A stretch of DNA of 64,000 bases from an uncultured delta proteobacterium (lineage in GTDB: Bacteria > Myxococcota_A > Polyangia > Palsa-1104). Within the stretch, counting starts at the first letter, position 1; every line of letters begins with the position of its first letter. The position numbers were made by a program, and so were the translations under genes. Where the stretch lies: positions 480,001 through 544,000 of the forward strand of contig CAWAWS010000003.1 in the NCBI GenBank assembly GCA_963785725.1, written 5' to 3'. Positions 1,946 through 27,438 of this stretch are shown here, in pieces. The notes under the pieces were generated by a model that saw only the letters and a list, made by a program, of their open reading frames with translations, was not told the origin of the DNA and searched no databases.

Positions 1946-3942
1946 CACGCCGCGGCCTCCCAACCCGCCTCGCTGAAGCGCGCGACGATTCGCGCCGCTT
2001 CGTCCGGCTGGCTGAAGCGCAGCTGCGCCGCGGGCCGCTGTTCGACGAGCCGGCAGAGGTGGTTGACGGCGCGATCGCGGTCGATGCGAAAGTCGATCGA
2101 GGCGCCGATCAGCGCGGCGACCGCCTCCGCCGGCGACATGGGCGCGATGCGACTGTCGCGCGTATACAGCGGCGTTCTCTTGGCGATCACCAGTCGCTCG
2201 AGCGGAGCGGCAAAGCGGCCGGGCCCGGCTGCGCCTTCGGGCTGCGAGCGCGCGCACAGCGGCACGGCCACCAGGTCGGCCGCGCGGATGGCGATGACGC
2301 TGCGATCGATCAGCCGAAAGCCTTGCGCCTCGATGGCGCGCACCAACGCGTGGGTGGGATCGGCGATCTCACCCGCGATCACGAGGCCGCGCCCGCCTTT
2401 GACGAACGCCGCCGCCGAAAGCCACGTGTAGTTGTGGCGCGCGCGGGCGTAGATGCGGGCGATGTACCGCTTGAGCACGAGCGGCAGCTCCTTCGCGCCG
2501 CAGGCTATCTTCTGATCGCTGCCACGCTGCGCGATGCTGTAGGTCGTGTCGTGGCCGACGTCGAGGTTGGCGATCACGTTGCGCGCCTGCGTGGTCGCGT
2601 CCGCGCCCAGCTGCACGGAGAGCTGCTTGAGCAAGGCGGCGTCTTTGCACCACACGGCCACCTGCAGATCCTCGAAGCCGACATACACGACCGCTTCGTC
2701 TTTGGGCGCGAGCGCGGGCGCGCTCGGGCGCGCACCCAAAGACGCCGGCTTTGCCTCCGCGACCTTGACGAGCGCGCCCGTCTCGAGGACCTCGGGCAAG
2801 AGGAAGCTCTCGGGCCACTCGCGCATCCAGGCCGGGTTGAGCTGCTGGCTGACGCGATTCCACGAATAGGGCCCGGCGAAATCCTCGACCATCTCGCCGC
2901 GCTCGAGCAGGATGCACTCGCTGACGGCGTGGCGGCCGCGCTCGAGCTCCGCCTCCGCGTCCGGCAGCTCGTTCCACAAGTAGCGAAAGGCCTCGGGCTT
3001 GCCGCGATTGCCGCGATAGCGCTGGATCAGCCCGGTGAACGTGCTCGTCATCGTGCCCATGAACTCTTTCGCTTCCGCCGCCACGAGCTGCGACAGATAG
3101 GCGAGGCTCAAGCTGTCGCTGCGCGGCAGCTTGAGCAGCTCGCGGCCGTAGTGATCGAGGATGTGCCAATCGATGAAGTAGTGATGCGGATAGGCCTGCT
3201 TGATCGCCGTGAAGAAGGGATCGTCGCGCTCGTCGGTGAGGATGACCAACGGCTCCCTGCGGCTGAACAGCGGCTCCATCGCCTCGAGGGCTTCGGCCGG
3301 CTTGCGGTCGAGCGTCGTCACGCCGTAGGTGACCTTGAAGTCGCCGCGGCGGAAATGCACCGCGTTGAAGGCGCCGAGGTCGCGCGCCACGCGCTGGGCG
3401 AGCTCGGCGAACGGGCGCTTCGCCTGCATGTTCCGCAAGAGCCGGTACACCGATCGCCGCGTCTCGTGATCGAAATAGAATTGATAGCTGTAATAGCCGA
3501 GATTGGAGCGCTTATTCGCCTGCTCGGACAGCGCCAGCACGGGGATTTGCTCGTGCTCGCCCGTCACCGTCACCCAGTGGCGCCGACTGCGTGCGAAGGC
3601 GCGCGCATCGGACGAGGACACGTCGAGCGTCTTCGGAAAGTAGAGCGCGCAGTCCCACAGCGAGTGCTCGGTGAGCTCGCGGCGCGCCAGCCCAGCGAGG
3701 TCGACGGCGTCCGGCTCGACCCACGCCACCGGCATCTCGATGAGGTCGGTGACCCGGCTCGGAACGGCGTTGTCGACGCGACCGTCATAGCTGACGAGGT
3801 TGGCGGGTGGCGGAATATTGCCGTCGAGCACCAAGAGGCGATTGGTCAGATGCGCCAGGATCACGCCGATTTCGATCGACATGATGCCGTTGGACAGCCC
3901 CGAATTTCCCGACTGATAATTGGTGTACAGGAGATAGCGCAT
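1945..3942 (-). CDS. O-fucosyltransferase-like (GT-B) protein with C-terminal degenerate HPr-kinase-like domain
   Basis: SGLSNGIM..AHLTNRLLVL, FNAVHFRRGDF, VILTDE and EFMGTMTSTFT match the O-FucT pattern. C-terminal WLSAAAFVKGGRGLVIAGE resembles HPrK-related kinases but lacks an intact Walker A. Confidence 0.75.
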   Translation of the reverse strand: MRYLLYTNYQSGNSGLSNGIMSIEIGVILAHLTNRLLVLDGNIPPPANLVSYDGRVDNAVPSRVTDLIEMPVAWVEPDAVDLAGLARRELTEHSLWDCALYFPKTLDVSSSDARAFARSRRHWVTVTGEHEQIPVLALSEQANKRSNLGYYSYQFYFDHETRRSVYRLLRNMQAKRPFAELAQRVARDLGAFNAVHFRRGDFKVTYGVTTLDRKPAEALEAMEPLFSRREPLVILTDERDDPFFTAIKQAYPHHYFIDWHILDHYGRELLKLPRSDSLSLAYLSQLVAAEAKEFMGTMTSTFTGLIQRYRGNRGKPEAFRYLWNELPDAEAELERGRHAVSECILLERGEMVEDFAGPYSWNRVSQQLNPAWMREWPESFLLPEVLETGALVKVAEAKPASLGARPSAPALAPKDEAVVYVGFEDLQVAVWCKDAALLKQLSVQLGADATTQARNVIANLDVGHDTTYSIAQRGSDQKIACGAKELPLVLKRYIARIYARARHNYTWLSAAAFVKGGRGLVIAGEIADPTHALVRAIEAQGFRLIDRSVIAIRAADLVAVPLCARSQPEGAAGPGRFAAPLERLVIAKRTPLYTRDSRIAPMSPAEAVAALIGASIDFRIDRDRAVNHLCRLVEQRPAAQLRFSQPDEAARIVARFSEAGWEAAA

Positions 3943-4590
3943 CTATTCCCTCGTCGCCGTGCCTGCAGCAGTCGCGGGATGGTAGTGAACGAAGATTCCC
4001 GCGTAGAAATCGCCGTCGAGCGGATAGGGGCGACCATGCGCCAGACGCACGCCTTCATAGAGGACGTATTCGCCCGGCTCCATGTCGACTTGGTGCACTC
4101 GACCGTCGAGGCCCTCGATGTGCAGCGGCCAGCGCGACTCGAGCGCGTGATCGATGCAGATCGTCGAGCTGACGAAGTGCGGCTGGCGATCGACATGGTT
4201 GTACAGGAAGGTTCCGCGTTGATAGCAGCGAATGCCGTAACAGGCCGAGAGCTCGAGCAGCCTACCCGCCCACGCTTCGTGCAGCGGCTTGAGCTCGTCG
4301 GCGAGCTGCGCGTTGAACGCGTCCTCTTGGAATAGGAGCGCCGGAATCACGTCTTGGCGAGCGCTGCGAATTTCGTCGGAGGCGCGCTCGGGACGAAACT
4401 GCGCCAGGTTGTCGCGCAACTGCGTCACCAGTCGTGCGTGGATGGCCGGCGCCAGTCGCCCCTTTTGGAAGCCGAGCCCGAGACTGGGCGCCGCGGCCTG
4501 CATCTCTTCGCACTTCTTGCGTAGATACGGCGGCGCCGTCAGCTCCGTCAGCAGCGGCTGCCCCGGCTCGGCTTCGCGCGCGCGACTCAT
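3943..4590 (-). CDS. 2OG-Fe(II) oxygenase-like hydroxylase
   Basis: YGIRCY..LYNHVDR (HxD), WPLHIE, MEPGEYVLYEG..AHGRPYPLDGDFYAGIFVHY. ATG 4590 overlaps the upstream TGA (ATGA). Confidence 0.75.
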   Translation of the reverse strand: MSRAREAEPGQPLLTELTAPPYLRKKCEEMQAAAPSLGLGFQKGRLAPAIHARLVTQLRDNLAQFRPERASDEIRSARQDVIPALLFQEDAFNAQLADELKPLHEAWAGRLLELSACYGIRCYQRGTFLYNHVDRQPHFVSSTICIDHALESRWPLHIEGLDGRVHQVDMEPGEYVLYEGVRLAHGRPYPLDGDFYAGIFVHYHPATAAGTATRE

Positions 4591-5915
4591 GCGTGCTCCT
4601 TCTGAAGGCGCCTCCGCGCGGCGAGGCCGAGGTCGAAAAATCGGCGCTCGAGGTCGGTCTTGGCCGAGGCGCGAAAGCTGGCCAGGTTCTCGGCGAGGAA
4701 GTCGCGATCGGCGAACAGCTGCTTGTTCCACGCCGAGCCCAAGAAGGGGCCGCCGCAGCCGTCGTTGACGTCGGCGTAATAGTGGAAGAACGAGCCGGCG
4801 GCGACCGACTCCTGCTGCGGCACCGGTGTCATGAACTGCGGCGCTTGCAAGAGCTCGTAGTCGACACGATTGGCCGTCAGCGCCATGGCAAAGCAGGCCA
4901 TCTCCGCCATCCACACGCGGCTATCGGGAAGGCCGCCGGTCTTGCCGAGCAAGTAGATGATCTGCGCGAAGCGGAAGCAGTCTTTGATGACCTTGTCGTG
5001 CTTCAAGGTCGCGCCGGTCATGAAGACGGTGACGGCGCCGCGTTTGAGCTCGGTTCGACAGCCGAGCGCACCGAGCAGCTGTTGCAGGTCGATGCCGCTG
5101 TCGTCGTCGCCGCGGCTGAGAAAGCGCGGGTCGCGCATGATCGCGTCCGCGGCCAAGGCATTTCCGACCGGGAACACCTCGCGGTTCAGGTCACCGTACA
5201 AGAAGACGTCGCTGTCCATGAGGCAGACGAGATCAGCGGCAGCGACCCGCGGCGCCATCGCGTTGAGGGCCTCGACGCGGTTGAGCGCCACGTAGCCGCC
5301 ATCATGCGACGAGAAGTCGATCTTGTGGCTGTGCGCGTGGTTTCGTCCCGTGAGCACGCCGACCCCGTAGAGCGAGACGAGACGCGTCAGCGCCGGCGAA
5401 AGCGCCGCATGATCGTTGCACACGACGAGCGTGATGTCCCAGCCGGGCGCGAGCTGACCGACGAGCGACTCGAGCAGAATGCCGAGCTGCCAATGAAAAT
5501 ACGGTTTGTCCTCGACTCCGAAGACGAAGCGCACGCGCGGCCGGAGCGCGACTCCCGTTACCGTGTCGTCCGCGAAGGCCACCTCGTCGGCGAGCGCGCG
5601 CTCGGATGAAGGCAGCGCCAAATCGATCATGCCGAGCTGCGCAAAGTGGAACAGCGCCTCGGTGATATCGGCCAGGATGCGAACGTTTCTTCCGTCGTAG
5701 CGCGTGCGCAGCGCGTCGAGCATGTCGAGCGCCGTGTGCGCACCGTCGCAGAGCTGCCAGACCGCGGCCGCCGACTCGTTCAGCGCCAGCGCGACCTCAC
5801 CATCGGGCGACAAGACCACGAGCTCGTTGGCGACGGGAAACAACGAAAAGCCCAGCTTCGCTTGCGGTCGCGCGCTCGAACGGCCGCGAGCACGCGCGCC
5901 CATGTCGTTCATCAA
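4587..5915 (-). CDS. N-terminal PqqD/RRE fused to hydroxyproline O-arabinosyltransferase (HPAT/GT95)-like domain
   Basis: RRE: LALNESAAAVWQLCDGAHTALDMLDALRTRY. GT motifs PYFHWQ, GGYVALNR, LMDSD (DxD), WMAEMACFAMA, FFHYY and WNKQ parallel recalled plant HPAT motifs. Confidence 0.75.
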   Translation of the reverse strand: MMNDMGARARGRSSARPQAKLGFSLFPVANELVVLSPDGEVALALNESAAAVWQLCDGAHTALDMLDALRTRYDGRNVRILADITEALFHFAQLGMIDLALPSSERALADEVAFADDTVTGVALRPRVRFVFGVEDKPYFHWQLGILLESLVGQLAPGWDITLVVCNDHAALSPALTRLVSLYGVGVLTGRNHAHSHKIDFSSHDGGYVALNRVEALNAMAPRVAAADLVCLMDSDVFLYGDLNREVFPVGNALAADAIMRDPRFLSRGDDDSGIDLQQLLGALGCRTELKRGAVTVFMTGATLKHDKVIKDCFRFAQIIYLLGKTGGLPDSRVWMAEMACFAMALTANRVDYELLQAPQFMTPVPQQESVAAGSFFHYYADVNDGCGGPFLGSAWNKQLFADRDFLAENLASFRASAKTDLERRFFDLGLAARRRLQKEHA

Positions 5916-5991: not shown

Positions 5992-7005
5992 TTAAAGTAT
6001 CCAGCCGCGCGCCTGCGCCTCTTCGAACGTCACCGCGAGCGCCCAATCGGCCTCCGAGTGAATGGTCACGGGATCGGGATTCTTGCCGGTGAAGACATCG
6101 GGGTGCGCGCGTTTCCGCTGAAAATCGAAGCCGGAGTACAGCTCGTATTGGCGCAGCGTGCGCGCGCGTCCGAGGCTGTAGGGCCCGAGCGTGTGCCCCT
6201 CGTTCGCGTAAACCAGGCGGCGCAGTCGCTCCAGCGCCGTGGCGTTGCGCCGGCGAACGACCTCGTCGCCATGCTCCCAATGACGACGCGGCGGCGCGCC
6301 CCGGTGCAACATGTGCCAAGCCAGCACCTCGGTCGGCAGGAAGAAGTCGTATCCCCAGGTATAGCTGCGAACCGAGACGCTCAGCTCTTCGCCCCAATAA
6401 TAGTGGTCGGGATCCTGCGGCACCTCGACGTTCCATTGACCGCGCGTAAAGACGAAGCCGCCGTTGACGACGCGGGTTCTGCCCGGCTTTTGCTGGTTGG
6501 GCTCGCCGAAGCCGAACCACGGCGCCCAGCCGCCTTGCTCGGACCAGTCGCTGACGCGCGTCGTCGGCACGCCCATGTCCAAGCGGCGCTGCAGCGAGCC
6601 GTCGTCATCGTAGTAAAAGAGCGGCGAATTCATGGTCAGGATCGGCTTTTCGGCCGGGAGCGACTCGAGCATCTGGACCAAGCGCGCATCCCAGCCGGGC
6701 TCGAGCTTCATATGCGAATCGATCTGCAGCGTATAGGGCTCGCCGCGCCACTGCGACTGGGCCAGATTGCGCGCCCACGGTCCGCCTTGGCTCTCTTGGA
6801 CGGTGCGATCGATGAAGCGAAAACGCACATCGCGACGGAACCGCGACAGATCGAGCGGCGCGGCCGGATCGGCCTGCCAGCAGATGCCGAAGCGGAGCGC
6901 GGCCGGATGGCGCGCCATCGCCAGGCAGTCGTCGAGCGTGCGCGGCAGCTCCGGGTCGGCGTAGGCGGCAATGGCGACGAAGATCCGCTGGTCCGTCTTC
7001 ATCAC
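5992..7005 (-). CDS. Skp1-hydroxyproline N-acetylglucosaminyltransferase-like (GlcNAc family, GT60-like)
   Basis: IFVAIAAYADPE, LRFGICWQ, SQGGPWARNLAQSQWRGEPYTLQIDSHM, GGFVFTRG, YYWGEELSVSVRSYTWGYDFF, LGRARTLRQYE. Confidence 0.85.
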   Translation of the reverse strand: MMKTDQRIFVAIAAYADPELPRTLDDCLAMARHPAALRFGICWQADPAAPLDLSRFRRDVRFRFIDRTVQESQGGPWARNLAQSQWRGEPYTLQIDSHMKLEPGWDARLVQMLESLPAEKPILTMNSPLFYYDDDGSLQRRLDMGVPTTRVSDWSEQGGWAPWFGFGEPNQQKPGRTRVVNGGFVFTRGQWNVEVPQDPDHYYWGEELSVSVRSYTWGYDFFLPTEVLAWHMLHRGAPPRRHWEHGDEVVRRRNATALERLRRLVYANEGHTLGPYSLGRARTLRQYELYSGFDFQRKRAHPDVFTGKNPDPVTIHSEADWALAVTFEEAQARGWIL

Positions 7006-7084: not shown

Positions 7085-9169
7085 ATGATGGACATCGTCG
7101 CGCGCGAGCCCGCGCAGCGCGCCACTTACAAGATCTATTTCCCGCTGTTCGATGACGTCGAGTCACTCAGCAACGAAGTGCGGCTCACCCATCAAGGGCT
7201 GCGCCAGCACCCGCACGTGCAGCTGGTCGACCGGCCGGAGCTGGCGGACTATCTCGTCCTCTGCCAGAACCACCTCGTCGCTCACAATCCGCATCACGCG
7301 CGCTTCGTCGCGATCAAGGACCAATACAAAGACAAGACGATCATGCTCGACTACGGCGACGATCCCCATGAGCTATGGGATCGGCACGACTTCCGCTGGC
7401 GGCTGTACTTCAAGCGCAGCGTGGTCGATCGGCGGCAAGGGCGCGTGCTCGGCTATGCCGGTCTGCCGGTCTGGCCGACGGCGTACGCGGTGGTCGACGA
7501 CATGTGCGAGCCGCCGCTGCCTCTCGACAGAGAACACCGTCACGCGCGCCCGCTCGACCTGTCCTGCCTGTTCGACGATAGCGTCCTCGAGAGTCCGTAT
7601 TTTCGGCTGGCCCGCGGGCGGCTGCTCAAGTTTGCCAAGCGTCTCGTGGCGACGCACGGTCTGAACGCGCAGCTCGGGACCGTCTCCGAATGCGGACCGG
7701 TCGGCCGGTCGGCCATCGATCCCAAATACAAAGAATGCCTGTGGGCCAGCAAGATCGTGTTGCACGCCAACCCGGATCGGTGGGAAGGCGATGCGCGGCT
7801 CTGGGAGGCGCTGGCTGCCGGCGCGCTGGTATTCGTCGAACGGTTGCATGCGCCCATCGCGCACCCGCTCGTCGATGGCGAGCATCTCGTCTTCTACGAT
7901 TTCACCGACGCGGGCATGGCGATCCTCGAGCGGCAGATCCTGCATTACCTGGCGAGCGACACAGAGCGCGAGCGCATCGCGGTGCAAGGAAGGCGGTTCG
8001 TGCTCGCGCATCATCGTTCGATTCACCGGGCCAACGAGATCATCAGTCGACTCGAGCAGCCGAGCGCCACCAAGGTCACGGCGAGCGCCAAGCCCGACAT
8101 CATCGTGGCCATGGCCAGCGGCTGCGCGCGCCTCGGCGACTACCGGACCTTCGTCGCGACCTTGCGCCGCAGCGGCGCCACCTGTCCCGTCTTTCTCGGC
8201 ATCGACGCCGGCTCCGCGTCCGCGCCGATCAAAAAGTACCTGCTCGAGCACGCCGTCAATTACTTCATGGTCGAGCCCATGACGGGTGGCGACCGCTTCG
8301 GCGAATACGCCAAGTGGCTACGCGACGTCGATTTTCGCTACGCGCTGCTGCTCGACTTCGGCGCCACCTACTTTCAACGCGATCCGTTCCTCGACGTCGA
8401 CGGCTACATGGCTGGTTGCGACCTTCTCGTCATGTCGGAGCTGGTCTTGGGGCGCAAGGCGGCGCTGCTGCGATTACTCGACGCGCTCGCCGCGCTCGAC
8501 CCGTCGCAGCGCGTCCAGCCGGACGTGCTGAGTCAGCTCGCACGGACAGGCCATCTCGACCATTGCGGTCGGATCCAGATCGAGCGCGCCGGCCAGAGCC
8601 TCGTCCATCAGCGTGAAGGACGAGTCGAGCCGTTGCGCGATCACGACGGCTGGCTGCTCGATGACGACGGCAACGTCTCCTCCGTCGTGCAGTGCGACAC
8701 GCGACTCCCCGACCTCGCGCCGTTCGTGTCGCGGTTGAGCGATTACGAGCAGCCGGACGAGCTGTTCGTGGCGAGCGGCAGCCGGCCCTATCGCGGGCAG
8801 AAATTCACGCTGTCGTCGCGCGCCGGGCTCAGGCCCGACGCAGTCTCGCGCCTGATCGCGCTGGCCAAGAGCATCTCCGTCGACAAAAAGCCGCTCTTCG
8901 TGCTCGACCGTCGTTTCCGGCGCGGCTTCGTCTTTGCTTACGGCGTGCTGAGCATCGATCTATTGGCGGAACCCGAGCCGCTGCGGCGCCGCTTCTTCCA
9001 CCCTTCGGACGACCGCAAGAAGTGCGCGCAATTCTGCGAGAAGCACGGTTACGCCGTCTTCCGCGTCGACGAGCACGCGCTCTTCGCGAGCGTCGGAGCG
9101 ACCGCGGATCGCGTGCTCACCGCGGACAGCTTTGCCGAAGCGCGCGCGCTCGCCGAGCGTTGGATCTGA
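7085..9169 (+). CDS. Multidomain glycosyltransferase (CgeB/Glyco_trans_1_2-like N-half plus degenerate GT-A-like C-half)
   Basis: SKIVLHANP..RLWEALAAGALVF..LVDGEHLVFYD..RERIAVQGRRFVLAHH. Second domain FVATLRRSG..LLLDFGATYFQRDPF. Start approximate. Confidence 0.65.
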   Translation: MMDIVAREPAQRATYKIYFPLFDDVESLSNEVRLTHQGLRQHPHVQLVDRPELADYLVLCQNHLVAHNPHHARFVAIKDQYKDKTIMLDYGDDPHELWDRHDFRWRLYFKRSVVDRRQGRVLGYAGLPVWPTAYAVVDDMCEPPLPLDREHRHARPLDLSCLFDDSVLESPYFRLARGRLLKFAKRLVATHGLNAQLGTVSECGPVGRSAIDPKYKECLWASKIVLHANPDRWEGDARLWEALAAGALVFVERLHAPIAHPLVDGEHLVFYDFTDAGMAILERQILHYLASDTERERIAVQGRRFVLAHHRSIHRANEIISRLEQPSATKVTASAKPDIIVAMASGCARLGDYRTFVATLRRSGATCPVFLGIDAGSASAPIKKYLLEHAVNYFMVEPMTGGDRFGEYAKWLRDVDFRYALLLDFGATYFQRDPFLDVDGYMAGCDLLVMSELVLGRKAALLRLLDALAALDPSQRVQPDVLSQLARTGHLDHCGRIQIERAGQSLVHQREGRVEPLRDHDGWLLDDDGNVSSVVQCDTRLPDLAPFVSRLSDYEQPDELFVASGSRPYRGQKFTLSSRAGLRPDAVSRLIALAKSISVDKKPLFVLDRRFRRGFVFAYGVLSIDLLAEPEPLRRRFFHPSDDRKKCAQFCEKHGYAVFRVDEHALFASVGATADRVLTADSFAEARALAERWI

Positions 9170-9182
9170 GTCGCTGCTGGCT

Positions 9183-10154
9183 CTATTGGGACGTCGCTCG
9201 ACGTCTTCGGCCGCGGCGCTCGTTGCGTTCGCTGCCCTCGCTGAACCAGGCCACCGTTTGGGCGAGCCCGCGCTCATACGAGACCGTGGGCTCCCAGCCG
9301 AGCAGTCGGCCCGCGCGGCTGATGTCGGGGCAGCGCTGCCGCGGATCGTCTTGCGGCAGCGGATGAAACTCGAGCCGCACGTCGCTGCCGACGGCGCGGC
9401 GCACGTCTTCGGCGACCGACAAGATGGTGCGTTCGTCCGGGTTGCCGAGATTGACGATGGGAACGACCTCGGCGCTCGACTTGGAAAACTCCATGAGCGC
9501 GCCTAAGCCGGCGACGAGATCATCGACGTAACAGAAGCTGCGCGTCTGGCTGCCGTCGCCATAAATGGTGAGCGGATCGCCGCGCAGCGCCTGCGTGATG
9601 AAGTTCGGGATGAGCCGTCCGTCGCCGCTGGCCATGCGCGGTCCGTAGGTGTTGAAGATGCGCGCGATGCGCACCTCGGTGCCGTATTGCGCGGCCCACG
9701 ACGTGGCCATCGCTTCGCCGCAGCGCTTGCCCTCGTCGTAGCAGCTGCGCACGCCGACGGGATTGACGCGGCCGTGATATTCCTCGCGCTGCGGGCTCAC
9801 GTCGGGATCGCCATAGACCTCACTCGTCGACGCGATGAGGAGGCGAGCACCGACCTCGCGCGCGCATTCGAGCGCGTGCATCGTGCCCATCACCGCCGTC
9901 TTGATGGTGCGAACGGCGTTGCGTTGGTAATGCACGGGCGACGCGGGGCAGGCGAGGTGCCAGATACGGTCGACCTCGAAGTGGAACGGCTCGCAGACGT
10001 CACCGCGAACGAATTCCACCGCGTCGGTGTCGAGGTTCGCACGGCTGCCGGTGAACAAGTTGTCGAAGCAGATGACCTCCTCATGCGCGCGCACCAACGC
10101 GTCGCACAGGTGCGACCCGATGAACCCAGCGCCGCCGAGGACGAGATGCCGCAT
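9183..10154 (-). CDS. uxs: UDP-glucuronate decarboxylase (UDP-xylose synthase), SDR family
   Basis: GGAGFIGSHL, HLACPASPVHYQ, ASTSEVYGDP, RSCYDEGKR, RIFNTYGPRM, GSQTRSFCYVDD, DDPRQRCPDI. Confidence 0.9.
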   Translation of the reverse strand: MRHLVLGGAGFIGSHLCDALVRAHEEVICFDNLFTGSRANLDTDAVEFVRGDVCEPFHFEVDRIWHLACPASPVHYQRNAVRTIKTAVMGTMHALECAREVGARLLIASTSEVYGDPDVSPQREEYHGRVNPVGVRSCYDEGKRCGEAMATSWAAQYGTEVRIARIFNTYGPRMASGDGRLIPNFITQALRGDPLTIYGDGSQTRSFCYVDDLVAGLGALMEFSKSSAEVVPIVNLGNPDERTILSVAEDVRRAVGSDVRLEFHPLPQDDPRQRCPDISRAGRLLGWEPTVSYERGLAQTVAWFSEGSERNERRGRRRRATSQ

Positions 10155-11272
10155 CAGAGCCGCTCGAACCTGAGCGCGCCGATCTGCTCGAGGCGCCGCA
10201 AGACGGCCTCGGTATCGGGCTGCAGGCTGCCTTGCGGGAGCTCGAAGCGCGATTCGAGCGTTCGGTGGATGTCGGCGATCGTGTGCGTGCCGTCGCAGGC
10301 TTCCCAGATCGCGGCGCCGGAAGAGTCGAGCGCCAACGTGTCCGCGCGGCCGGGAATCTCGAGGAAGATCGAGCCGTAGATCTTGCCCGTGCGCACGCCG
10401 TCGCCGCGCAGCGGCCGCATGAACGTGAGCTCGTGTCGATGCGCGCGCCGTTCGCGCAGCTCGGCCAACAGCGTCAAGAGCTCGCGGCCCGTGCCCGCCT
10501 TTGCCGACAGCGGATCGACCGGATGATCCAAGCTGCCATCGCCGCTCGCATCCCACACGATCGCGCCGCTCGCCGACTCGACGGCGCGCTGGCAGTCGAT
10601 GATCGGCGCCGCGCTCTCGATGGCATGCGTGTCCGTCGCGAGCTCGGCCGCTGCGTGCGGAATGCGCGCCTCGGCGGCGGCGATCAGATAAGCCACGTCG
10701 TCGGCCGCGCGCAGCGGACCGTCTTCGGTGAGCGCGGTCTCGGCGCGAATCAGGCTCATCAGCTCCAGCCAGCGGGCCGCGATCTTGCGCAGATCGCTCG
10801 AGTGGATGATGAGCGGCAGCTTCACCGCGTCCAGCTCGAGCGCGCGATCGACGCAAAACTGGTCGAGGAACCCAAAGTCTCGGCCGAGGTCGAACGGACC
10901 GTCGCCGCGCGGGCGCTCCGGCCACGCCATGGCTTTGGCTTGGCCCGCTCGCGCTTCCTCGGTCACCGCCGCGCGAAAGACGCAGCGCGGCTCGACGAGG
11001 AGGATGGTCCCATCGACTTGCTCGCCGAACAGCCATTCGAGAATCGCGGCCGCTTTGTGGTACGGCGGATAGACGTCGCCCGTGTACGGATGCGGCGACC
11101 ACGCCGTCGTCGCCACGACGCGCGCGTGCCGATGCGTCGGCGCCGGCGGCGCTGGAGGGCGCGCGACCAGGCGCACCAGCTCGCCCGGTTGCCGCACGCG
11201 CGCCCACGAGAGCTCGAGCAGCTCGCACTGCCACTCGGGCTCACCGAAGCTGCAAACGACCGTGTGGATCAC
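10154..11272 (-). CDS. SERGT/HPAT-like glycosyltransferase domain fused to C-terminal PqqD/RRE
   Basis: IHTV..EWQCELL..QPGELVRL..WSPHPYTGDVYPPYHKAAAILEWL..IHSSDLRKIAARWL..AYLIAAAEA resembles plant peptidyl-serine galactosyltransferase domains. C-terminal LDSSGAAIWEACDGTHTIADI is an RRE. GTG start overlaps the upstream stop. Confidence 0.75.
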   Translation of the reverse strand: MIHTVVCSFGEPEWQCELLELSWARVRQPGELVRLVARPPAPPAPTHRHARVVATTAWSPHPYTGDVYPPYHKAAAILEWLFGEQVDGTILLVEPRCVFRAAVTEEARAGQAKAMAWPERPRGDGPFDLGRDFGFLDQFCVDRALELDAVKLPLIIHSSDLRKIAARWLELMSLIRAETALTEDGPLRAADDVAYLIAAAEARIPHAAAELATDTHAIESAAPIIDCQRAVESASGAIVWDASGDGSLDHPVDPLSAKAGTGRELLTLLAELRERRAHRHELTFMRPLRGDGVRTGKIYGSIFLEIPGRADTLALDSSGAAIWEACDGTHTIADIHRTLESRFELPQGSLQPDTEAVLRRLEQIGALRFERL

Positions 11273-12255
11273 GAGCCCACGCTGCGCAGCTGCGGCGCGA
11301 CCACGCCGCAAAAGAAGTGGCCCCAGCCGAAGCGTGCCTGCGGATCGACCTTGTCGCTGGCGTGCAGCCAGACGGTGATGGCAAAGCGGCTGTCGGCGAA
11401 TTCGCCCGATGGACAGCGCACGGGCAGCGCTTCGTGGAGCTCATGGCTGGCGAACACGACCAGCCGATTGGCCACCGCCTGCACCGGCACGAACGACTCG
11501 GCGGCCCTGACCTCGGCGCCGCCTTCGACGGAGACGGCGTCGTAGAGCCGCAGCTCGCCGCCGCTGAAACCGCGCGGCTCGCGGTGCAAATAGTAGATAC
11601 AGGTCAGCGCCCGCGGCGTCGTCGGCGATTGGTCGGCGTGCGTCTTGAAATAGTGGCCGTCGCGCGCCGCGGTCAGCTGCGACTCGAGCTGCGCCAGCGG
11701 AAACACCGGCAGCCCCAAGCGCTTGGCGATGAGCGGGAACCAAATGAGCAGCCGATTTTCGAGCAGCCGACTGTGCACCGACGCGCCGAAATCGAGGATG
11801 ACCTGATTCTGCCGCACCTCGGGCGTGTAGGACTCGGTCACGGTGCCAGCCTCGAACTGCGCCTCGGAGGCGAGCGCATAGGCGAGCAGCTCGTCGTGCT
11901 CTTGTGGGCTCAGGAAATCGTCGATGATCACGCAGCGAGGACGACGCACGCTCAGCGACGAAGCGGAACGCGTGGCCTCGGGCTGAGCCGCCGCGTTTGG
12001 CTGCGCTGGGCTCAGCCGTTCGGGAGCGAGCACCACCGGCGGCTCACTCGTCACGGAGACGATCTTCGCCGTTTGAAACGACCAGGCGCGGCGGCCGCCG
12101 TCGAGCGGCAGCTGCAGGAACCGGTTCTCAGCCCACGGCGAGGCGAGCGCGGCGAACAGCGCCAGCAGCTCGGGCGCATCTTCGCGCAGCCGCACTTCAC
12201 GTGCTTCGCCGCTGACCAGGTTGATCGTGAGCGTGATGTCGCGCAGTGTCCCCAT
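11269..12255 (-). CDS. 2OG-Fe(II) oxygenase, prolyl-4-hydroxylase-like, with uncharacterised N-terminal domain
   Basis: FKTHADQ, GGELRLYD, ELHEALPV, DSRFAITVW. First gene downstream of the Pro-rich precursor. Confidence 0.85.
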   Translation of the reverse strand: MGTLRDITLTINLVSGEAREVRLREDAPELLALFAALASPWAENRFLQLPLDGGRRAWSFQTAKIVSVTSEPPVVLAPERLSPAQPNAAAQPEATRSASSLSVRRPRCVIIDDFLSPQEHDELLAYALASEAQFEAGTVTESYTPEVRQNQVILDFGASVHSRLLENRLLIWFPLIAKRLGLPVFPLAQLESQLTAARDGHYFKTHADQSPTTPRALTCIYYLHREPRGFSGGELRLYDAVSVEGGAEVRAAESFVPVQAVANRLVVFASHELHEALPVRCPSGEFADSRFAITVWLHASDKVDPQARFGWGHFFCGVVAPQLRSVGS

Positions 12256-12351
12256 CAGTCGGTGGCCTTCGTGTCCGCATGGGCGAGGCGCGAACGGAGC
12301 CACGTCCTCTTAACCGTGCGGCGGCAATGAGTCGTGCGCATCCGAACGACG

Positions 12352-12954
12352 TTACGAAGTGGTCGCGCGCAGTCGAACGCGCGCAGTCGCGCGCGCCGCG
12401 CCGAGCGCGATGAAGCCGACCGAGCTCGACCCGCAGTCGGGCGCGCTCGCCATTCCCAACACCGGTGACACCGTTGGCGCCAGGGTCGGCGCGGGGACGC
12501 AGTGGCCGGCCATGGTCGGATGCGCGGTCGGCGCTCGCGTCGGCGGCGCGGTCGGCGCTCGCGTCGGTGGCGCAGTCGGCGCTGGCGTCGGCGGCGCCGC
12601 TGTCGGCGGCGCGGTGGGCGCCCGCGTCGGCGCCAGGGTCGGCAAATTGATCACGGAATGGTCGTCGCCGGCGCCACCGTAGTAAGCCAGCGCCGTGCCG
12701 GGCTTCAAGATCGTGCCCAGCCCCGCCGCCAGCTGCGCCATCGGCAGCGATAGGACCACCGGCGCCACCCACATCTTCTTCAGCGCGTCGCGGCGCGATG
12801 GATCGGCCGCCGGCTCGTCCGGCTTGGCGTCGGCCGCCTGCGCGTGCGCCGGCTCGGACGACTCCGCCGCGTCGTGCTGCTCCAGCTTCCTCTTGAGCTC
12901 CTCGAGCTCGGCGAGCAGCTGCTCTTTGGTCTTCTTGTCGCTACCGTCGCTCAA
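12352..12954 (-). CDS. Putative precursor/substrate protein: leader plus Tat-like signal plus Pro-Thr-Ala repeat core
   Basis: TTG start with GAGGT RBS 8 nt upstream. SRRDALKKMWVAPVVLSL, TALA|YYGG, 13 PT dipeptides, hydrophobic/basic C-tail. Lies between a standalone RRE and a P4H-like gene. Confidence 0.7.
   Translation of the reverse strand: MSDGSDKKTKEQLLAELEELKRKLEQHDAAESSEPAHAQAADAKPDEPAADPSRRDALKKMWVAPVVLSLPMAQLAAGLGTILKPGTALAYYGGAGDDHSVINLPTLAPTRAPTAPPTAAPPTPAPTAPPTRAPTAPPTRAPTAHPTMAGHCVPAPTLAPTVSPVLGMASAPDCGSSSVGFIALGAARATARVRLRATTS
12514..12645 (-). repeat. Imperfect tandem coding repeat (24-nt unit, APTAPPTR)
   Basis: Repeated cgcggtcggcgctcgcgtcggcgg-type units within the precursor ORF. 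Confidence 0.8.
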
Positions 12955-12972
12955 GAGGTTGTACCTCGGCCA

Positions 12973-13278
12973 TCACGGAGTGATTTCGACGAGCGCGTGC
13001 AAGCTCAGATAGCGCAGAAACGTAACCACATCGCGCTCGAGCACCGAACGATCCGGCGCGACGTAGTCACTTTCCAGCTGCTCGCACAAGGCGGCAATCG
13101 TCGACGCTTGCTCGAGGTGTTGCCAAATGGTCTTACCAGCTTCGTCGAGGCCGACATAGAGGCCGCGCTCGACGCTCATGAGAATGTGCCGGCCTCCGAC
13201 GTCGGCCGAAAGGAAGGGCTTGCGCGCGACTCGCGACGCCAAGCTCACCCCCCCGCTGCCAGCGCCCGACCAGAGCAT
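12973..13278 (-). CDS. Standalone PqqD-family RiPP recognition element (RRE)
   Basis: ADVGGRHILMSVERGLYVGLDEAGKTIWQHLE..IAALCEQLESDY..LERDVVTFLRYL. Start may instead be GTG 13248. Confidence 0.85.
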   Translation of the reverse strand: MLWSGAGSGGVSLASRVARKPFLSADVGGRHILMSVERGLYVGLDEAGKTIWQHLEQASTIAALCEQLESDYVAPDRSVLERDVVTFLRYLSLHALVEITP

Positions 13279-13356
13279 CCTGCTAGTGAAGGTACGCCAT
13301 GTCCTTGTGGTCAACAAGCGCGAACTGGCCTAGCATCGCGGGCACTGACTCGAATC

Positions 13357-14478
13357 ATGCTGCGTTCGCTCGATGATGTCCTCTCGCCGCTCACCGTCGG
13401 AGAATTCGCGGCGGCGGTCGACGGCAGGAAGCGCTTCCACGTGCAGACGACCGATCCGCGGCGCGCGGAGTCGCTGCTGCCGTGGCCCGAGATCGAGGCG
13501 ATGATCTCGATGCGTCGCTTCGAGAACATGAAGGTGATGCACAACGGCATGGTGGTGCCGCCGCAGCTGTACAACGCGGACGTGAGCGCGCTGCACGACG
13601 TGCTCTTGCAAGGCGCCAGCATCGTCGCCACGCGCGTCGACGCGGATGTGCCGCAGATCCAGTGGCTGGCGACCGCGATCGAACGGCAGCTCGGGCGCGA
13701 GGTCGGCGTCAATGCGTATCTGAGCTTCTCGGAGGGCGGCGCGTTCAAGCCACACTGGGATCGGCACGATGTGCTGGTCTTGCAAGTCCACGGCGCGAAA
13801 ACGTGGAGCATCTGGAACGCGACGCTCGACAATCCCGTCGAGATGTCGCGCTTCGCCAAGCACGACATCACGGACGCGCCCTGTCAGTCGCTCGAGCTGG
13901 CGGCCGGCGACGTCCTTTACATCCCGCGCGGAGAGCCGCACGCCGCGTCGGTGTCGAGCGGCGCCTCGGTGCATCTGACGTTCGGGATCGAGCGCATCAC
14001 CGGCGTCGACGCGTTACAGCGGCTGCAACAGGCGGCCGGCGAAGATGCCTTCTTGCGCGCGGATGTGCCCACCAAAGAGCGGCCCGCGCAGCTGCACGCG
14101 TTCGAAGCCGAGTGGAAGGCGCGCTTGCACCGCCTGGTCGACGCGACTGACCTAGCGCAGGTTTTGCACGACAGCGACCTGCAGCGACCGCCGGTTCGGC
14201 AGGCCTCCTTGTCGACGTTCGCGGAGCCGAGCGATCTCGTACGGCTCACGTTGCGGCGGCGCGTTCCGCTCGATGGCGGCACGGTGACCATTGGCGGCGT
14301 CGCGCACCCGCTCTCGGCCGCGGCCATCGACCTCTTGCGCCGCTTGTTCGAGCGCGACTGGCAGACGCGCGCTGCGCTGACGCAGGCGCTGGCGCCGCGT
14401 CACGAGCCCTCAGCGGTCGAGCGCGCGCTCCGCGAGCTCGCGCGGCTCGGCTTCATCGCCACGCATCGTCCGATATAG
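13357..14478 (+). CDS. JmjC/Cupin_4 (ribosomal-oxygenase-like) 2OG hydroxylase
   Basis: VNAYLS..GAFKPHWDRHDVLVLQVHGAKTW..GDVLYIPRGEPHAA..SVHLTFG, with a winged-helix-like C-terminus. Confidence 0.85.
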   Translation: MLRSLDDVLSPLTVGEFAAAVDGRKRFHVQTTDPRRAESLLPWPEIEAMISMRRFENMKVMHNGMVVPPQLYNADVSALHDVLLQGASIVATRVDADVPQIQWLATAIERQLGREVGVNAYLSFSEGGAFKPHWDRHDVLVLQVHGAKTWSIWNATLDNPVEMSRFAKHDITDAPCQSLELAAGDVLYIPRGEPHAASVSSGASVHLTFGIERITGVDALQRLQQAAGEDAFLRADVPTKERPAQLHAFEAEWKARLHRLVDATDLAQVLHDSDLQRPPVRQASLSTFAEPSDLVRLTLRRRVPLDGGTVTIGGVAHPLSAAAIDLLRRLFERDWQTRAALTQALAPRHEPSAVERALRELARLGFIATHRPI

Positions 14479-15378
14479 CGGCGCGATGCGTTCGGCGACG
14501 AGCTGTCGCTCCGCTTCGGACAGCGGCGCGTGCGCGCGGGCGCGGAACGGCTGCTCGCTCTGCGCCTTGGAGTCGAAGCGCGCTCGCTCGCGCATGCGTT
14601 CGATGGCCGACGGCGCGAAGGTCAGCTGCGCATGGGGCGCGACCTCATCCCAGACGGCATCGGGCAGCCGCGCGTAATCGACCGTGCGCAAGGAAAGCTT
14701 GGCGGCGTGCGCGGCCGAGAACAGCGCTTCGATGGCGTGCAGCCGAAAGCGCGCCGCCGACATCGCCCGCGCCTCGTCGACCGTGAGGCCGAACAGCGCC
14801 AGCGCCGGATCGCCCGTCTCGCGCCAGCTCAGCCATGCCGCCGGCTGTGCGGCGTGCGAGGCCAGCACCCGCAACGGATCGCGCTGCAGCCAGATCATCG
14901 GCGTCGCCGGAAACGCGCGCTGAATCAGGTTCACCGCCAGCACGTTCCAGCTCGTGAGCTTGAGGACGAGGTGGCGTGCGCCGGCGCGGTTGCGGCCGAG
15001 CGCGCGCACGACCAAGCGAAACAGCTCCACCTTATCGTGCTGATCGAGGCGCGCCGCGACGATGTTGTTGACGACGTTGACTTCCGAGAGCACGACATAA
15101 TCGGGCAGCGCCGCCAACATCTGCGCCAGCAAGGTCGACCCGCAGCGCGACACTTGAAAGATGAACAGCGACGGCTCGAGCGTCGGCCGCTCGTCGAGCG
15201 CGCGCAGCACGTCGACTCCGGTCAGCGCCTTGAGCTTGTCATTGGGCAGTCGCGCCAGCGTGTCGCGAAAGAACGGCTCGACGAAGCGCACGTCGCGCAG
15301 ATCGGCCCAGGTGAACAGCGGCTCGGGCAGGAATCGCACCGCGATGGGCGTGCAGTGCGCAGCGTCGTGCACGGTCAC
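14410..15378 (-). CDS. Sulfotransferase-family P-loop protein
   Basis: FIFQVSRCGSTLLAQML, VLSE, LKLTSWN, LQRDPLRVLASH. Confidence 0.7.
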   Translation of the reverse strand: MTVHDAAHCTPIAVRFLPEPLFTWADLRDVRFVEPFFRDTLARLPNDKLKALTGVDVLRALDERPTLEPSLFIFQVSRCGSTLLAQMLAALPDYVVLSEVNVVNNIVAARLDQHDKVELFRLVVRALGRNRAGARHLVLKLTSWNVLAVNLIQRAFPATPMIWLQRDPLRVLASHAAQPAAWLSWRETGDPALALFGLTVDEARAMSAARFRLHAIEALFSAAHAAKLSLRTVDYARLPDAVWDEVAPHAQLTFAPSAIERMRERARFDSKAQSEQPFRARAHAPLSEAERQLVAERIAPLYRTMRGDEAEPRELAERALDR

Positions 15379-15396: not shown

Positions 15397-15807
15397 TCAA
15401 ATCATCATGCCCGGCCGGATCAGGCGCGCGAGCTGCAGCTCGGCGAAGCGCAGTCGCTGACGCGGCTCGAGCATGCGACAGATGTCGAGCGTGCGCTCGA
15501 AGCCGATCTCGTTCAACGTCTGACGCTGCTCGCGAATCCTCTCGCTGGTGGCGCGTATCTCCGCCTCGTTCAGCGCGACCAAGTTCAGCTTCTGTTGCGC
15601 CACCAGCCGCTCCAGCTCCTCGCGCGCATGGCCGTAGCGCTCGAGGTCGCGGTCGAAGATGGCTTGCAGCTGCGCGCTCTGCGCCGGGGCGAGATCGAGC
15701 TGGTCGAGGATGGAGCGCCCCTTCTTCTTCGGTTCGCGCCGCGGCTGTGGTGCCGTTGGGACGATCTCACCCATCAGCCGAGCCAAGAACTTACGCCTCT
15801 CCATCAC
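15397..15807 (-). CDS. Spy/CpxP-like helical protein
   Basis: LDLAPAQ and MLEPRQR resemble LTxxQ motifs; helical composition. Confidence 0.5.
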   Translation of the reverse strand: MMERRKFLARLMGEIVPTAPQPRREPKKKGRSILDQLDLAPAQSAQLQAIFDRDLERYGHAREELERLVAQQKLNLVALNEAEIRATSERIREQRQTLNEIGFERTLDICRMLEPRQRLRFAELQLARLIRPGMMI

Positions 15808-16369
15808 CCGATTTTCTCACGGCGGGCGCCCAATCGCAAATGAGGTGCACGCGCGGCGCGACGCCGTCGTTGCTCGCCGAGTGCTGGCGCCGGTTGTTGA
15901 TCTCGACGACGTCGCCCGGCTTCAAGTGGCGCAGCTCGCCGCCGACGCGGAACAGCGCCTGCGCGTTGGTGACGACCGCGACGTGCAGCCGATGGCTGTT
16001 GGCCAGCGAGAAGCCGGCATCGACGTGCGGCGGGATCGAGCCGCCCGGCCGCAAGCGCACCAGCAGCGAGCGAACGATCCAGCCCGCATCGCCGAAGCAG
16101 CCGGCGATCACGCCGTGGATCGGCTCGATGACGTGCGCAAAACGCGCGTAGCTCTCGCGCCGCGTCGGCTCGGCATGGCGAAAGTCGGCGTCGAAGAGCA
16201 GCGGAATGGTCTGCGTGTCACGATGCGTCGGGAAGGTCTCCTGGCGAAAGCGATCCGCCAGCCAATCCTCATCGGACAATCTCGACAGCTCGGCACAGAG
16301 CGCCGCGATGTCGACGGTGCCGCGCTGGAAGTAGTTCCCTGCGAAGTCCACGACGGCTGCTACAATCAT
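15791..16369 (-). CDS. Aspartyl/asparaginyl beta-hydroxylase domain protein
   Basis: VRLRPGGSIPPHVDAG..HRLHVAVVTN..VEINNRRQHSASNDG..RVHLICD. Confidence 0.85.
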   Translation of the reverse strand: MIVAAVVDFAGNYFQRGTVDIAALCAELSRLSDEDWLADRFRQETFPTHRDTQTIPLLFDADFRHAEPTRRESYARFAHVIEPIHGVIAGCFGDAGWIVRSLLVRLRPGGSIPPHVDAGFSLANSHRLHVAVVTNAQALFRVGGELRHLKPGDVVEINNRRQHSASNDGVAPRVHLICDWAPAVRKSGDGEA

Positions 16370-16380
16370 GTCTCGTTCGC

Positions 16381-17100
16381 GTGTTCATTACAAAGTCATT
16401 CGTCTTCATCCATCTGCACAAGTCGGGCGGGACGTTCGTAAACCGCTTTCTGCAGCGCTTCTTTTCCGACGGACAGCGGCTGAATTGGCATCTGCCGCGC
16501 GCTTTTCTACCGCGCGACTTCCGCGCCCTGCCCGTCTTGGGCGTCGTGCGCAATCCGTGGGACTACTACGTCTCGTGGTTCACGTTTCAGTCGTCGATGC
16601 GCCCGCAGCAGCAGAACGCGCTGTACCGCGCGGTCTCGGACGACGGCACGCTCGCTTTTTCACCCGCGATCGCCAACCTCGTGAAGCTGTGCGACGACCG
16701 CGAGCGCTGGCAGGCCCTCCGCGCGCAGCTGCCGGACGCGTTCGTCGACCACGGCATCAACCTCACCAAGCGCTGCATCGATCCGCTGCTCGGCTCGGGA
16801 CGCGGCTTTTATTCGTTCCTGTTTCAGCGCATGTTCGCGCCGCCGGAAGGTGGCGATGGAGGCGGCGTGACGTTCGCGCGCATGGAGTCGCTGCGCGGCG
16901 ATCTGCTGCAGTTCCTCGGCGACGTCGGCGTCGAAGTTACCGACGAGATGCGCGACTTCCTGTTGCGCTCGGAGAGAGTGAACGTCACCGAGCACGCGCC
17001 GTTTGCCACCTATTACGACCCGGCCTTGCGCGACGAGGTCGGCGCGCGCGACCGCGAGGTCATCGAACGCTTCGGCTACCGGTTCAAAAGCGATAGTTGA
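16381..17100 (+). CDS. Sulfotransferase family 2-like protein
   Basis: FVFIHLHKSGGT, VVRNPWDYYVSWF, RMESLRGDL, YYDPALRDEV..D..VIERFGYRF. Confidence 0.75.
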   Translation: MFITKSFVFIHLHKSGGTFVNRFLQRFFSDGQRLNWHLPRAFLPRDFRALPVLGVVRNPWDYYVSWFTFQSSMRPQQQNALYRAVSDDGTLAFSPAIANLVKLCDDRERWQALRAQLPDAFVDHGINLTKRCIDPLLGSGRGFYSFLFQRMFAPPEGGDGGGVTFARMESLRGDLLQFLGDVGVEVTDEMRDFLLRSERVNVTEHAPFATYYDPALRDEVGARDREVIERFGYRFKSDS

Positions 17101-17746
17101 AGCGCTCCACGTCTTCGGCGTAGCGACGGGCGACGAGCGCGCGCGCGCGCGGCCCGTAATATTGCGTGTAGTGACCGTGCTTGGTGCGGTTGAGGAACGG
17201 CAGCTCGATGGCGGGAAAGCCGGCGCGTTGGCAGATGTGCTGCCAGTCTTCGCTGACGCGCTCGATGCGTCCCAAGAAGTCGGGCAGCCAGCGGCCGGCA
17301 TCGTCGCGAAAGAAGCTGCACTGCGAGCGCAAGTGAACATCCAACAGCGCGTCTTCGCTGTGCGCGACCACTTCGACGAAGTCGTCGAACGTCATCTCGA
17401 GGCGAAAACGGCCGTCCTGCTGGAACCAGGGCGGCAGCGCGACCAGCCCTTTTTCACGATTGTCCGTGAAGGTGAACGCGTACGCCGACAAGAGCCGCGC
17501 CCACGGATTGCGCACGAAGCCGAAGCGAAAATGATCGGTGAGCGCATGGACGGCCATCTTGTCGAAGCCGGGAATCTCGGTCTTGAAGCGGTGCCGCGCC
17601 GGCCCGTCGCCGCGTTCGCTGATCGGGTGGCCGGCGAGCTTGGCCGCGACATAGGCGAGCGAGGTCGACGCCACCTTGGTCTGCGCGAGCAGCAGCGCGC
17701 GATACGGCGGAATGATCACGATGCCGTTGTAGGGCTGCATGCTCAT
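17084..17746 (-). CDS. Sulfotransferase family 2 protein
   Basis: TKVASTSL, FGFVRNPWARLLSAY, HLRSQ, DFLGRIE, YAEDVERFNYRF. Confidence 0.8.
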   Translation of the reverse strand: MSMQPYNGIVIIPPYRALLLAQTKVASTSLAYVAAKLAGHPISERGDGPARHRFKTEIPGFDKMAVHALTDHFRFGFVRNPWARLLSAYAFTFTDNREKGLVALPPWFQQDGRFRLEMTFDDFVEVVAHSEDALLDVHLRSQCSFFRDDAGRWLPDFLGRIERVSEDWQHICQRAGFPAIELPFLNRTKHGHYTQYYGPRARALVARRYAEDVERFNYRF

Positions 17747-17910
17747 GGTCGCGCCCACGATTTCACGAAGACAACGCCCTCGCAAGCCGCGCCTCCGCTG
17801 ACGGCGCCCGCTCGGGCACGACACTTTTGCCGGCGTTGCCGAGTCGGTGTCGCATCGAACCGCTCAAGTCGTCACGGCTGGGGCCGATGGACTAGAAGAG
17901 GGGGCATATC

Positions 17911-25628: not shown

Positions 25629-25629
25629 C

Positions 25630-27384: not shown

Positions 27385-27423
27385 GAGGTCCTTTGGAATA
27401 GAGAGCGCGCGGCGAGCCCGCTC

Positions 27424-27438
27424 GCACGGAGCGCGCCA
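27424..27438 (-). promoter_or_regulatory. Putative sigma54 (-24/-12) promoter upstream of kaiC
   Basis: Minus-strand TGGCGCGCTCCGTGC (GG-N10-GC), 40 nt upstream of the kaiC ATG. Confidence 0.5.

Follow-up and report, generated by a model that had tools for sequence, protein, structure and literature searches.

Can a single leader segment both recruit modifying enzymes and direct the export of their product? The question is raised by a 200-residue reading frame with a Pro/Thr-repeat core, which belongs to a cluster of some 20 kb with four RRE domains, of which three are fused to enzymes and one stands alone, and with hydroxylase and sugar-transfer genes. The cluster is part of the window, by which we mean the whole 64,000-nucleotide stretch of DNA analyzed. 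A preliminary description had proposed that the twin-arginine (Tat) signal of this precursor doubles as its RRE recognition site, with modification in the cytoplasm preceding export. On sequence evidence, we lean slightly toward a reading in which the RREs would dock on the WxxP of the signal, the xxPT repeats would receive O-glycans in the cytoplasm, and the 110-residue core would be exported through Tat and signal peptidase I.

The frame at 12352-12954 is a real gene, because pN/pS, computed over eight coding sequences with synonymous sites close to saturation, was 0.27 in the coil and 0.43 in the RR-WxxP segment against 0.84 in the linker. Its GC content at the third codon position is 0.88, the other five frames across the same interval are all interrupted by stops, and no promoter- or terminator-like site was found at 12200-13500. 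Translation placed the quoted leader features where they had been read, with KTKEQLLAELEELKRKLE at residues 8-25, SRRDALKKMWVAPVVLSL at residues 53-70, and TALA directly followed by YYGGAGDD at residues 87-98. The repeat features were likewise recovered: exactly 13 PT dipeptides between residues 105 and 161, PTLAPT at 105 and 156, Cys152 and Cys174, and the tail as quoted.

Table 1. Features of the precursor gene and of the surrounding cluster, in coordinates of the window
Feature	Position	Strand	Remarks
Second HPAT-like/RRE fusion	1..920	-	Runs off left window edge
Second 2OG-Fe(II) oxygenase	917..1945	-	
O-fucosyltransferase-like domain with HprK-related C-terminal domain	1945..3942	-	Both below cut-off
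Conserved protein	3943..4590	-	HxD motif, taken as 2OG-oxygenase-like; family and structure searches gave no match
N-terminal RRE with GT-A-fold glycosyltransferase	4587..5915	-	RRE 5625-5825; invariant DxD; HPAT-like lead
GT60-type GlcNAc transferase	5992..7005	-	PF11397, E 5.5e-44
Glycosyltransferase with PF13524 domain	7088..9169	+	
UDP-glucuronate decarboxylase (UDP-xylose synthase) homolog	9183..10157	-	
HPAT-like domain with C-terminal RRE	10154..11272	-	RRE 10175-10342; HPAT from language-model lead only; no DxD
2OG-Fe(II) oxygenase	11269..12255	-	Best solved relative prolyl 4-hydroxylase 6t8m, E 7e-9
Precursor gene	12352..12954	-	200 aa, TTG start (translation); single copy in genome (genome search)
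Type-1 tail, L166-R196	12367..12459	-	Conserved, weakly hydrophobic, not MYXO-CTERM
xxPT repeats, residues 105-161	12472..12642	-	13 PT; predicted glycosylation core
AGHCV motif including Cys152	12496..12510	-	[RHY]C[VILA] in 16/16 type-1-tail members
c-region, K84-A90	12685..12705	-	Basic residue, Pro, AxA; signal peptidase I predicted to cut after A90
WxxPxV motif, W62-L68 (WVAPVVL)	12751..12771	-	Predicted RRE docking site; start of hydrophobic region
Twin-arginine segment, S53-K59 (SRRDALK)	12778..12798	-	Without consensus Phe
N-terminal coil, residues 8-25	12880..12933	-	L13 and E16 invariant (alignment)
GAGGT ribosome-binding-type site	12963..12967	-	8 nt upstream of TTG
Stand-alone PqqD/RRE	12973..13317	-	Domain 13003-13188; best solved relative the WxxP-binding lasso RRE 9x90
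JmjC-type oxygenase	13354..14478	+	
Sulfotransferase	14410..15378	-	PF13469
Asp/Asn beta-hydroxylase-like protein	15791..16369	-	Absent from related loci searched
Sulfotransferase-like protein	16381..17100	+	Weak; absent from related loci searched
Sulfotransferase	17084..17824	-	PF03567; absent from related loci searched

Homologs were retrieved by similarity to the precursor, and part of the conservation seen within the family is therefore built in. A full-length search returned 23 matches including the query, among which we recognized 12 family members and set 10 aside as repeat-only, a label based on inspection of 5 of the 10. The leader, searched against 1.84 billion representatives, gave 28 matches including the query, one of them unrelated (P0045). 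The resulting alignment (A2) holds 35 rows and leaves out the near-duplicate or frameshifted P0006, P0010, P0012, P0013, and P0017. A leader-only word search returned only the query protein, and viral contig scans together with phage tblastn gave no match. Shorter relatives were looked for at 30-46 aa only, with no match in that range, so short members are under-sampled. Residues L13, E16, R55, W62, P65, and V66 are invariant across the 35 rows. Lack of conservation of the leader motif among homologs was one of the outcomes that the preliminary description had named as counting against its reading; the alignment showed the motif to be conserved in 35 members. A conserved leader motif combined with a variable core, as seen in the alignment and in pN/pS, is the pattern of an RRE-dependent RiPP precursor.

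The coiled coil that had been read at the start of the leader is present and forms its most constrained segment, but it is a generic PAS-sensor coil and not specific to precursors: the same motif opens PAS sensor proteins at nine of the nine coil-only loci tested. The idea that the coil mimics an RRE helix was rejected after comparison with RRE helices (E 0.27).

The twin-arginine pair itself is kept in 33/35 aligned rows, with KR in two members; Ser or Thr precedes RR in 33/35, and a hydrophobic residue occupies the consensus Leu position in 32/35. Equating SRRxxLK with the Tat motif, as had been done, was nevertheless an overstatement, as the consensus is SRRxFLK and the family has Phe in 0/35 and Lys in 7/35 members. 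Both positions are semi-conserved and not essential, and hydrophobicity at the Phe position matters for export (PMC7317946). Pfam TAT_signal matched 2/35 members at E 0.2 and did not match the window's precursor, for which the curated Tat signal models gave no match either. Other features of Tat signals are a nearly uncharged hydrophobic stretch and a helix breaker, together with a basic residue in the c-region and AxA (PMC7317946). The best 12-residue hydropathy of the leader's hydrophobic region is 1.6-2.6 among members. An automatic parse, which chose an early site in a few rows, found a cleavage-type site in 34/35 members, a basic c-region residue in 26/34, and a helix breaker 12-17 residues past RR in 32. 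The AxA site noted earlier held up, with Ala at -3 in 31/35 and Ala or Gly at -1 in 33/35. The arginine pair is found 44-65 residues into the protein, mostly at a distance of 29-37 residues to the predicted cleavage site. A genome search found TatC and four signal peptidase I matches in the window's genome; TatC is present in three of four genomes and was not found in G456 (2.7 Mb). Judged from these features, Tat export with cleavage after Ala90 appears moderately probable.

The motif WxxPx[VIL] is present in 35/35 family members, 6-11 residues past the RR/KR pair, and agrees with the published lasso RRE motif [Y/W]xxPx[LVIFA], in which W/Y and P are required (PMC13381572), as the preliminary description had held; W/Y/LxxP is used throughout RiPP classes (PMC12710340). 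Among 3060 long ORFs of the same genome, the spacing of [YW]xxPx[LVIFA] 6-11 residues after [ST]RR occurs at 3 of 1305 [ST]RR sites. The four PqqD/RRE domains previously counted at the locus were all recovered in a domain search, and the best solved relatives of the locus RREs are lasso RREs (5v1u, E 1.6e-12; 9x90, E 3.3e-11). In LppB, N33 and D70 are the two residues holding the leader motif (PMC13381572); the corresponding positions are N/D and D in 12/12 aligned RREs, and the locus RREs keep the pocket residues, which are generic and also found in the unrelated RRE L032. The Phe that divides the RRE cleft is replaced by Ala or Val in all seven enzyme-fused RREs of the system. Asp at the D70 position of the aligned RREs is the Tyr-type residue; in PbaB1, the corresponding double mutant retained binding to its Trp leader (PMC13381572). 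We consider RRE binding at the WxxP, as predicted from these comparisons, to be quite probable.

The two most conserved enzyme types of the cluster, GT60 and 2OG, are without RRE. The residues modified by GT60 enzymes are Hyp in Skp1 and Ser/Thr at mucin-type sites (PMC8724618, PMC3188802). Among the solved relatives of the oxygenase at 11269-12255, which has the HxD motif, EGLN1 came behind 6t8m. For the RRE-fused domain at 4587-5915, the predicted GT-A fold (pLDDT 62) gave its best Z, 12.7, with glycogenin, a value shared by other GT-A enzymes, and its DxD is invariant (4/4). The domain of the 10154-11272 type yielded a predicted model of pLDDT 33, not folded, and the two domain types do not align to each other (E 0.27). 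Language-model features of both showed a similarity of 0.97 to clusters with 10-58% HPAT members. The name HPAT is a lead only, because Pfam HPAT (PF23452) gave no hmmscan match in either RRE-fused domain; it was also not found in the genome itself or in 401 phylum genomes, and no control gave a signal either. PDB sequence searches with the two RRE-fused domains and with the protein at 3943-4590 returned nothing useful.

The pair of a 2OG oxygenase and an HPAT-like/RRE gene occurs twice in the window's cluster (917-1945 with 1-920, and 11269-12255 with 10154-11272) and once in each of the related loci L017 and L044, and the doubling may reflect internal duplication or rearrangement. Beyond the left window edge, the second HPAT-like/RRE fusion is followed by a second GT60 gene and a GDP-mannose 3,5-epimerase homolog. 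A hydropathy check found no neighbor with a signal-like N terminus, which agrees with the proposed cytoplasmic modification before export. Domain searches detected no exporter or peptidase family in the window's cluster. Neither a macrolactam cyclase nor a B2 peptidase was found in the cluster, and one sub-threshold PF13471 match lies on another contig.

Several other genes of this genome were noted in passing. Left of the window, at G000:C3:470403-477065 (+), the cluster is adjoined by a 2220-aa repeat protein of 15% Cys with a GC-transmembrane-RRR tail, possibly a second substrate or an unrelated neighbor. A separate set of PqqD, radical SAM, HprK-like, and S24-like genes (G000:C7:797532-800395, labels assigned by eye) is unrelated to the cluster. 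Elsewhere in the window are a KaiC-like ATPase and a KaiB-like gene (25338-27573) with a PAS hybrid kinase downstream, an Ice-binding-like/Ig lipoprotein adjoining an OmpA/TSP3 protein (27859-30209), and an IS3-family-like transposase pair read by eye (48111-49141).

Scanning of 30 loci showed that 13 hold precursors and 17 match the coil only. After four copies of one locus were merged and the window and L044 were added, 12 distinct precursor loci remained, with an RRE gene in 8/12 and GT60 in 10/12; the four loci without an RRE end in or just past the precursor, and the locus-by-locus gene comparison leaves out rows for the 11269-12255 oxygenase. In L001, L003, L017, and L044, the precursor keeps its place within one and the same order of operon genes; it is likely the substrate of the surrounding cluster. 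Locus L003 of G456, whose precursor has a transmembrane tail, keeps genes for the RRE-fused glycosyltransferase, GT60, 2OG, and O-FucT; its HPAT-like/RRE and second GT60 genes (L003:15343-17100) are spread over several frames and may be broken genes or sequencing errors. Genome G455 encodes three precursors, two as tandem tail-less copies (L002:9998-10752) and one of full type 1 in a second cluster (L044:6472-7026). At L001:2939-6562 and L017:989-4033, the glycosyltransferase with PF13524 has DUF1796 (a putative papain-like peptidase) at its N terminus, joined in L001 by a C-terminal methyltransferase. DUF1796 is part of, or matches, the glycosyltransferase of three loci other than the window. 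The window's PF13524 glycosyltransferase is without DUF1796 and without the methyltransferase, and DUF1796 had no match in the window's genome. A UDP-galactopyranose mutase, an unassigned 232-239 aa protein, and a CxxCxxCC protein lie upstream of the precursor in L001 (6568-9919) and L017 (4044-7430); none of the three was found in the window's genome. The cluster had no full match in 60 relatives and was found in 0/41 other genomes of the order and 0/300 others in the class of G456, and this patchy distribution suggests that the cluster spread laterally.

In the family, PT-to-PT spacing is four residues in 142/224 intervals. The predicted mature core comprises residues 91-200, and family members end in tails of different types: 16 of the 35 members share the window's type 1, 10 have a transmembrane-like tail (type 2), 1 is intermediate, and 8 have neither. 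The motif [RHY]C[VILA] occurs in 16/16 type-1 against 0/10 type-2 members, the latter having no Cys at all (10/10); this split counts as one event and not 26, because the members are kin. As a guess, the motif could be a modification, disulfide, or attachment site in place of an anchor. Cys174 is not conserved among members. The suggestion that the tail has MYXO-CTERM-like character did not survive: no TIGR03901 match was obtained in the 35 members at E up to 1, the best 17-residue hydropathy of 1.13 lies under all 20 genuine tails (1.26-2.45), the profile comparison gave E 0.47, and there is no arginine run. At least 20 other proteins of the genome do carry MYXO-CTERM tails, a number that would point to a myxobacterium-like host. 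Judged by its sequence, the tail of the window's precursor is unlikely to serve as a membrane anchor. The 10 members of the sister subfamily have Pro-hydrophobic-basic tails, 2 of which match TIGR04174 weakly (E 0.001), and exosortase H is present in the one type-2 genome tested. The window's precursor has no TIGR04174 (IPTL-CTERM) match, and no exosortase was found in its 88%-complete genome. A common origin of the two tail types is strongly indicated only via the intermediate P0046, without which the score of 11.7 was beaten by at least 5/60 shuffles. A lipobox reading of the precursor was rejected against the lipobox consensus.

The proposed sequence of events can be set out as follows. The coil would dimerize or space the precursor, and the PqqD/RRE domains would dock on the WxxPxV inside the twin-arginine-type signal, their occupancy masking the signal until modification ends, in the manner of Tat proofreading chaperones. 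PhyA-like oxygenases would make hydroxyproline in the xxPT repeats; GT60 and HPAT-like enzymes would start glycans on Hyp, with Thr an equally open acceptor for GT60, and these glycans may then be extended, fucosylated, and sulfated. Finally, Tat and signal peptidase I would release the 110-residue core with Tyr91 as the mature N terminus, giving an envelope or secreted glycoprotein that would resemble mucin or extensin. The dual-motif leader and the hydroxylase and sugar-transfer neighbors make it likely that the PT repeats receive their sugars intracellularly, with export likely to follow. For Tat cargo, the limit on unstructured length is 100-120 residues, where the core sits, and a hydrophobic stretch blocks cargo of this kind (PMC6708511).

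Other explanations distribute the roles of leader, core, and enzymes differently. The leader could serve the RREs without Tat export, the RR being part of the recognition element or a relic and the modified protein staying inside or leaving otherwise. The missing consensus Phe, the Tat models that pass over the precursor, the KR of two members, the long n-region, and the TatC not found in G456 would fit this, yet the uncharged hydrophobic stretch, the basic c-region residue, and the AxA are all kept, scanning of the clusters turned up no exporter, and the transmembrane-like tail of ten members makes sense only if the protein is exported; we hold this explanation to be unlikely. Quite unlikely, too, is a segment acting as a Tat signal only, with WVAPV kept for another reason and the RREs binding the coil, the tail, enzymes, or another peptide. 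An invariant Trp and Pro in the hydrophobic region are needless for Tat and match the RRE motif exactly, and the coil, although the most constrained segment, is shared with PAS sensors in 9/9 tested cases and unlike RRE helices. In its favor stands the precedent of the bufferins, whose Sec signal is dispensable for modification, so that an export signal need not be a leader (PMC11626156).

The core could also be processed as in a classical RiPP, with a short peptide cut out near the xRC motif or the type-1 tail and the PT repeats as a spacer. This would account for [RHY]C[VILA] in all 16 type-1 members, the conserved tail, the JmjC and sulfotransferase neighbors, and the DUF1796 of other loci, but the Cys-less transmembrane-tailed members (10/10) include that of L003, where the RRE-fused glycosyltransferase, GT60, 2OG, and O-FucT genes persist; with DUF1796 unmatched in the window's genome and an enzyme set that suits Pro/Thr-rich acceptors, we find it decidedly unlikely. 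Sugar-nucleotide enzymes and sulfotransferases are also found in polysaccharide loci, and a large MYXO-CTERM-type protein adjoins the cluster. The product of the enzymes might be a surface polysaccharide, or their target another protein, such as the 2220-aa Cys-rich one, the precursor gene being a bystander or accessory, but this is very improbable given the peptide-binding RRE domains on three of the enzymes, the shared operon order around the precursor at four loci, and the lack of a polysaccharide export family in the clusters scanned. An extremely improbable reading, already largely refuted, makes the tail a MYXO-CTERM anchor of a sortase-processed surface glycoprotein: at least 20 MYXO-CTERM proteins in the genome and a tail with Cys, a hydrophobic patch, and arginines recommend it, against the missing TIGR03901 match, the low hydropathy, the profile comparison, the unconserved Cys174, and the absent arginine run reported above.

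Returning to the RRE-guided, Tat-exported glycopeptide, the literature searched, with subscription papers outside its scope, contained no paper on RRE/PqqD with glycosyltransferase and hydroxyproline or with a twin-arginine precursor. Papers on HPAT and bacterial homologs were plant or algal by title among those listed, and the accessible part of PMC12452194 contains no Tat case. RRE-Finder mentions RRE-glycosyltransferase fusions and, in the accessible part of the paper, gives no function for them (PMC7470986); clusters like the present one may sit unremarked in its data or in those of PMC12710340, as far as the accessible parts of both papers extend. The system is real, conserved, and undescribed in the literature searched, a variant of RRE-dependent peptide modification and possibly a new class. 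The fullest form of the claim is doubtful: that this is a new bacterial glyco-RiPP class in which the Tat signal would be the RRE recognition sequence, the modifying enzymes would act as export gatekeepers, and PhyA-, GT60-, and HPAT-like hydroxyproline O-glycosylation in the cytoplasm would give an extensin-like envelope glycoprotein. If true, it would bring together the logic of RRE-guided RiPPs, the quality control of Tat, and hydroxyproline/mucin O-glycosylation of the eukaryotic type, so far described apart. It would offer a small testable system for cytoplasmic Pro/Thr-repeat glycosylation in bacteria and might hint at where plant and protist peptide O-glycosyltransferases came from. It would also provide a substrate for the unexplained RRE-glycosyltransferase fusions of RRE-Finder (PMC7470986) and an enzyme-recruiting, export-directing leader that is portable for glycosylating and exporting Pro/Thr repeats, useful in glyco-engineering.

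Among known systems, the LPP/paeninodin-like lasso peptides share the [Y/W]xxPxV leader, the variable core, precursors of up to 200 aa, the discrete RRE, the HprK-related domain, a signal-peptidase-type cut, and glycosyltransferase-rich loci (PMC13381572). LPP clusters, as described in the accessible part of that paper, differ in having a SipW-like peptidase of their own, together with an NTP transferase and an ABC exporter, and in cutting the leader after FET (PMC13381572); these three genes and an FETxxS leader end were looked for and are lacking in the present cluster and family. Here, in contrast, we find a twin-arginine/hydrophobic/AxA signal, four RREs of which three are enzyme-fused, and Pro/Thr repeats; a cyclase, a B2 peptidase, and an exporter are all missing. 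Bufferins resemble the proposed pathway in combining cytoplasmic RiPP-type modification with housekeeping export via an N-terminal signal, but they use Sec and not Tat, with a signal dispensable for modification, MNIO chemistry on Cys, and a DUF2063-type RRE (PMC11626156, in its accessible part).

On the side of glycosylation, the protist Skp1 pathway (PhyA and GT60) and GT60 mucin-type initiation likewise use soluble prolyl-hydroxylase-like and GT60-like enzymes, and a glycogenin/GT8-like fold for a further transferase is shared as well; unlike the present cluster, these systems are eukaryotic, modify either one Pro in a folded protein or Ser/Thr in the Golgi, and have no leader or RRE in the accessible part of the source (PMC8724618). 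Plant extensin/arabinogalactan-protein glycosylation (HPAT, PF23452) also has a Pro-rich repetitive substrate that is exported, export being predicted here, and two RRE-fused domains of the cluster have HPAT-like features, but the plant pathway works in the Golgi lumen after Sec entry, and Pfam HPAT is unmatched here. The sister subfamily's tails recall IPTL-CTERM/exosortase H sorting, whereas the precursor of the window ends in the other kind of tail. The proposed masking has its closest parallel in DmsD-type chaperones, cytoplasmic partners that mask Tat signals until maturation ends (10.1101/789909, accessible part); in contrast to DmsD, the binder here would be a PqqD/RRE on the modifying enzymes, and the cargo a predicted disordered glycopeptide instead of a cofactor enzyme.
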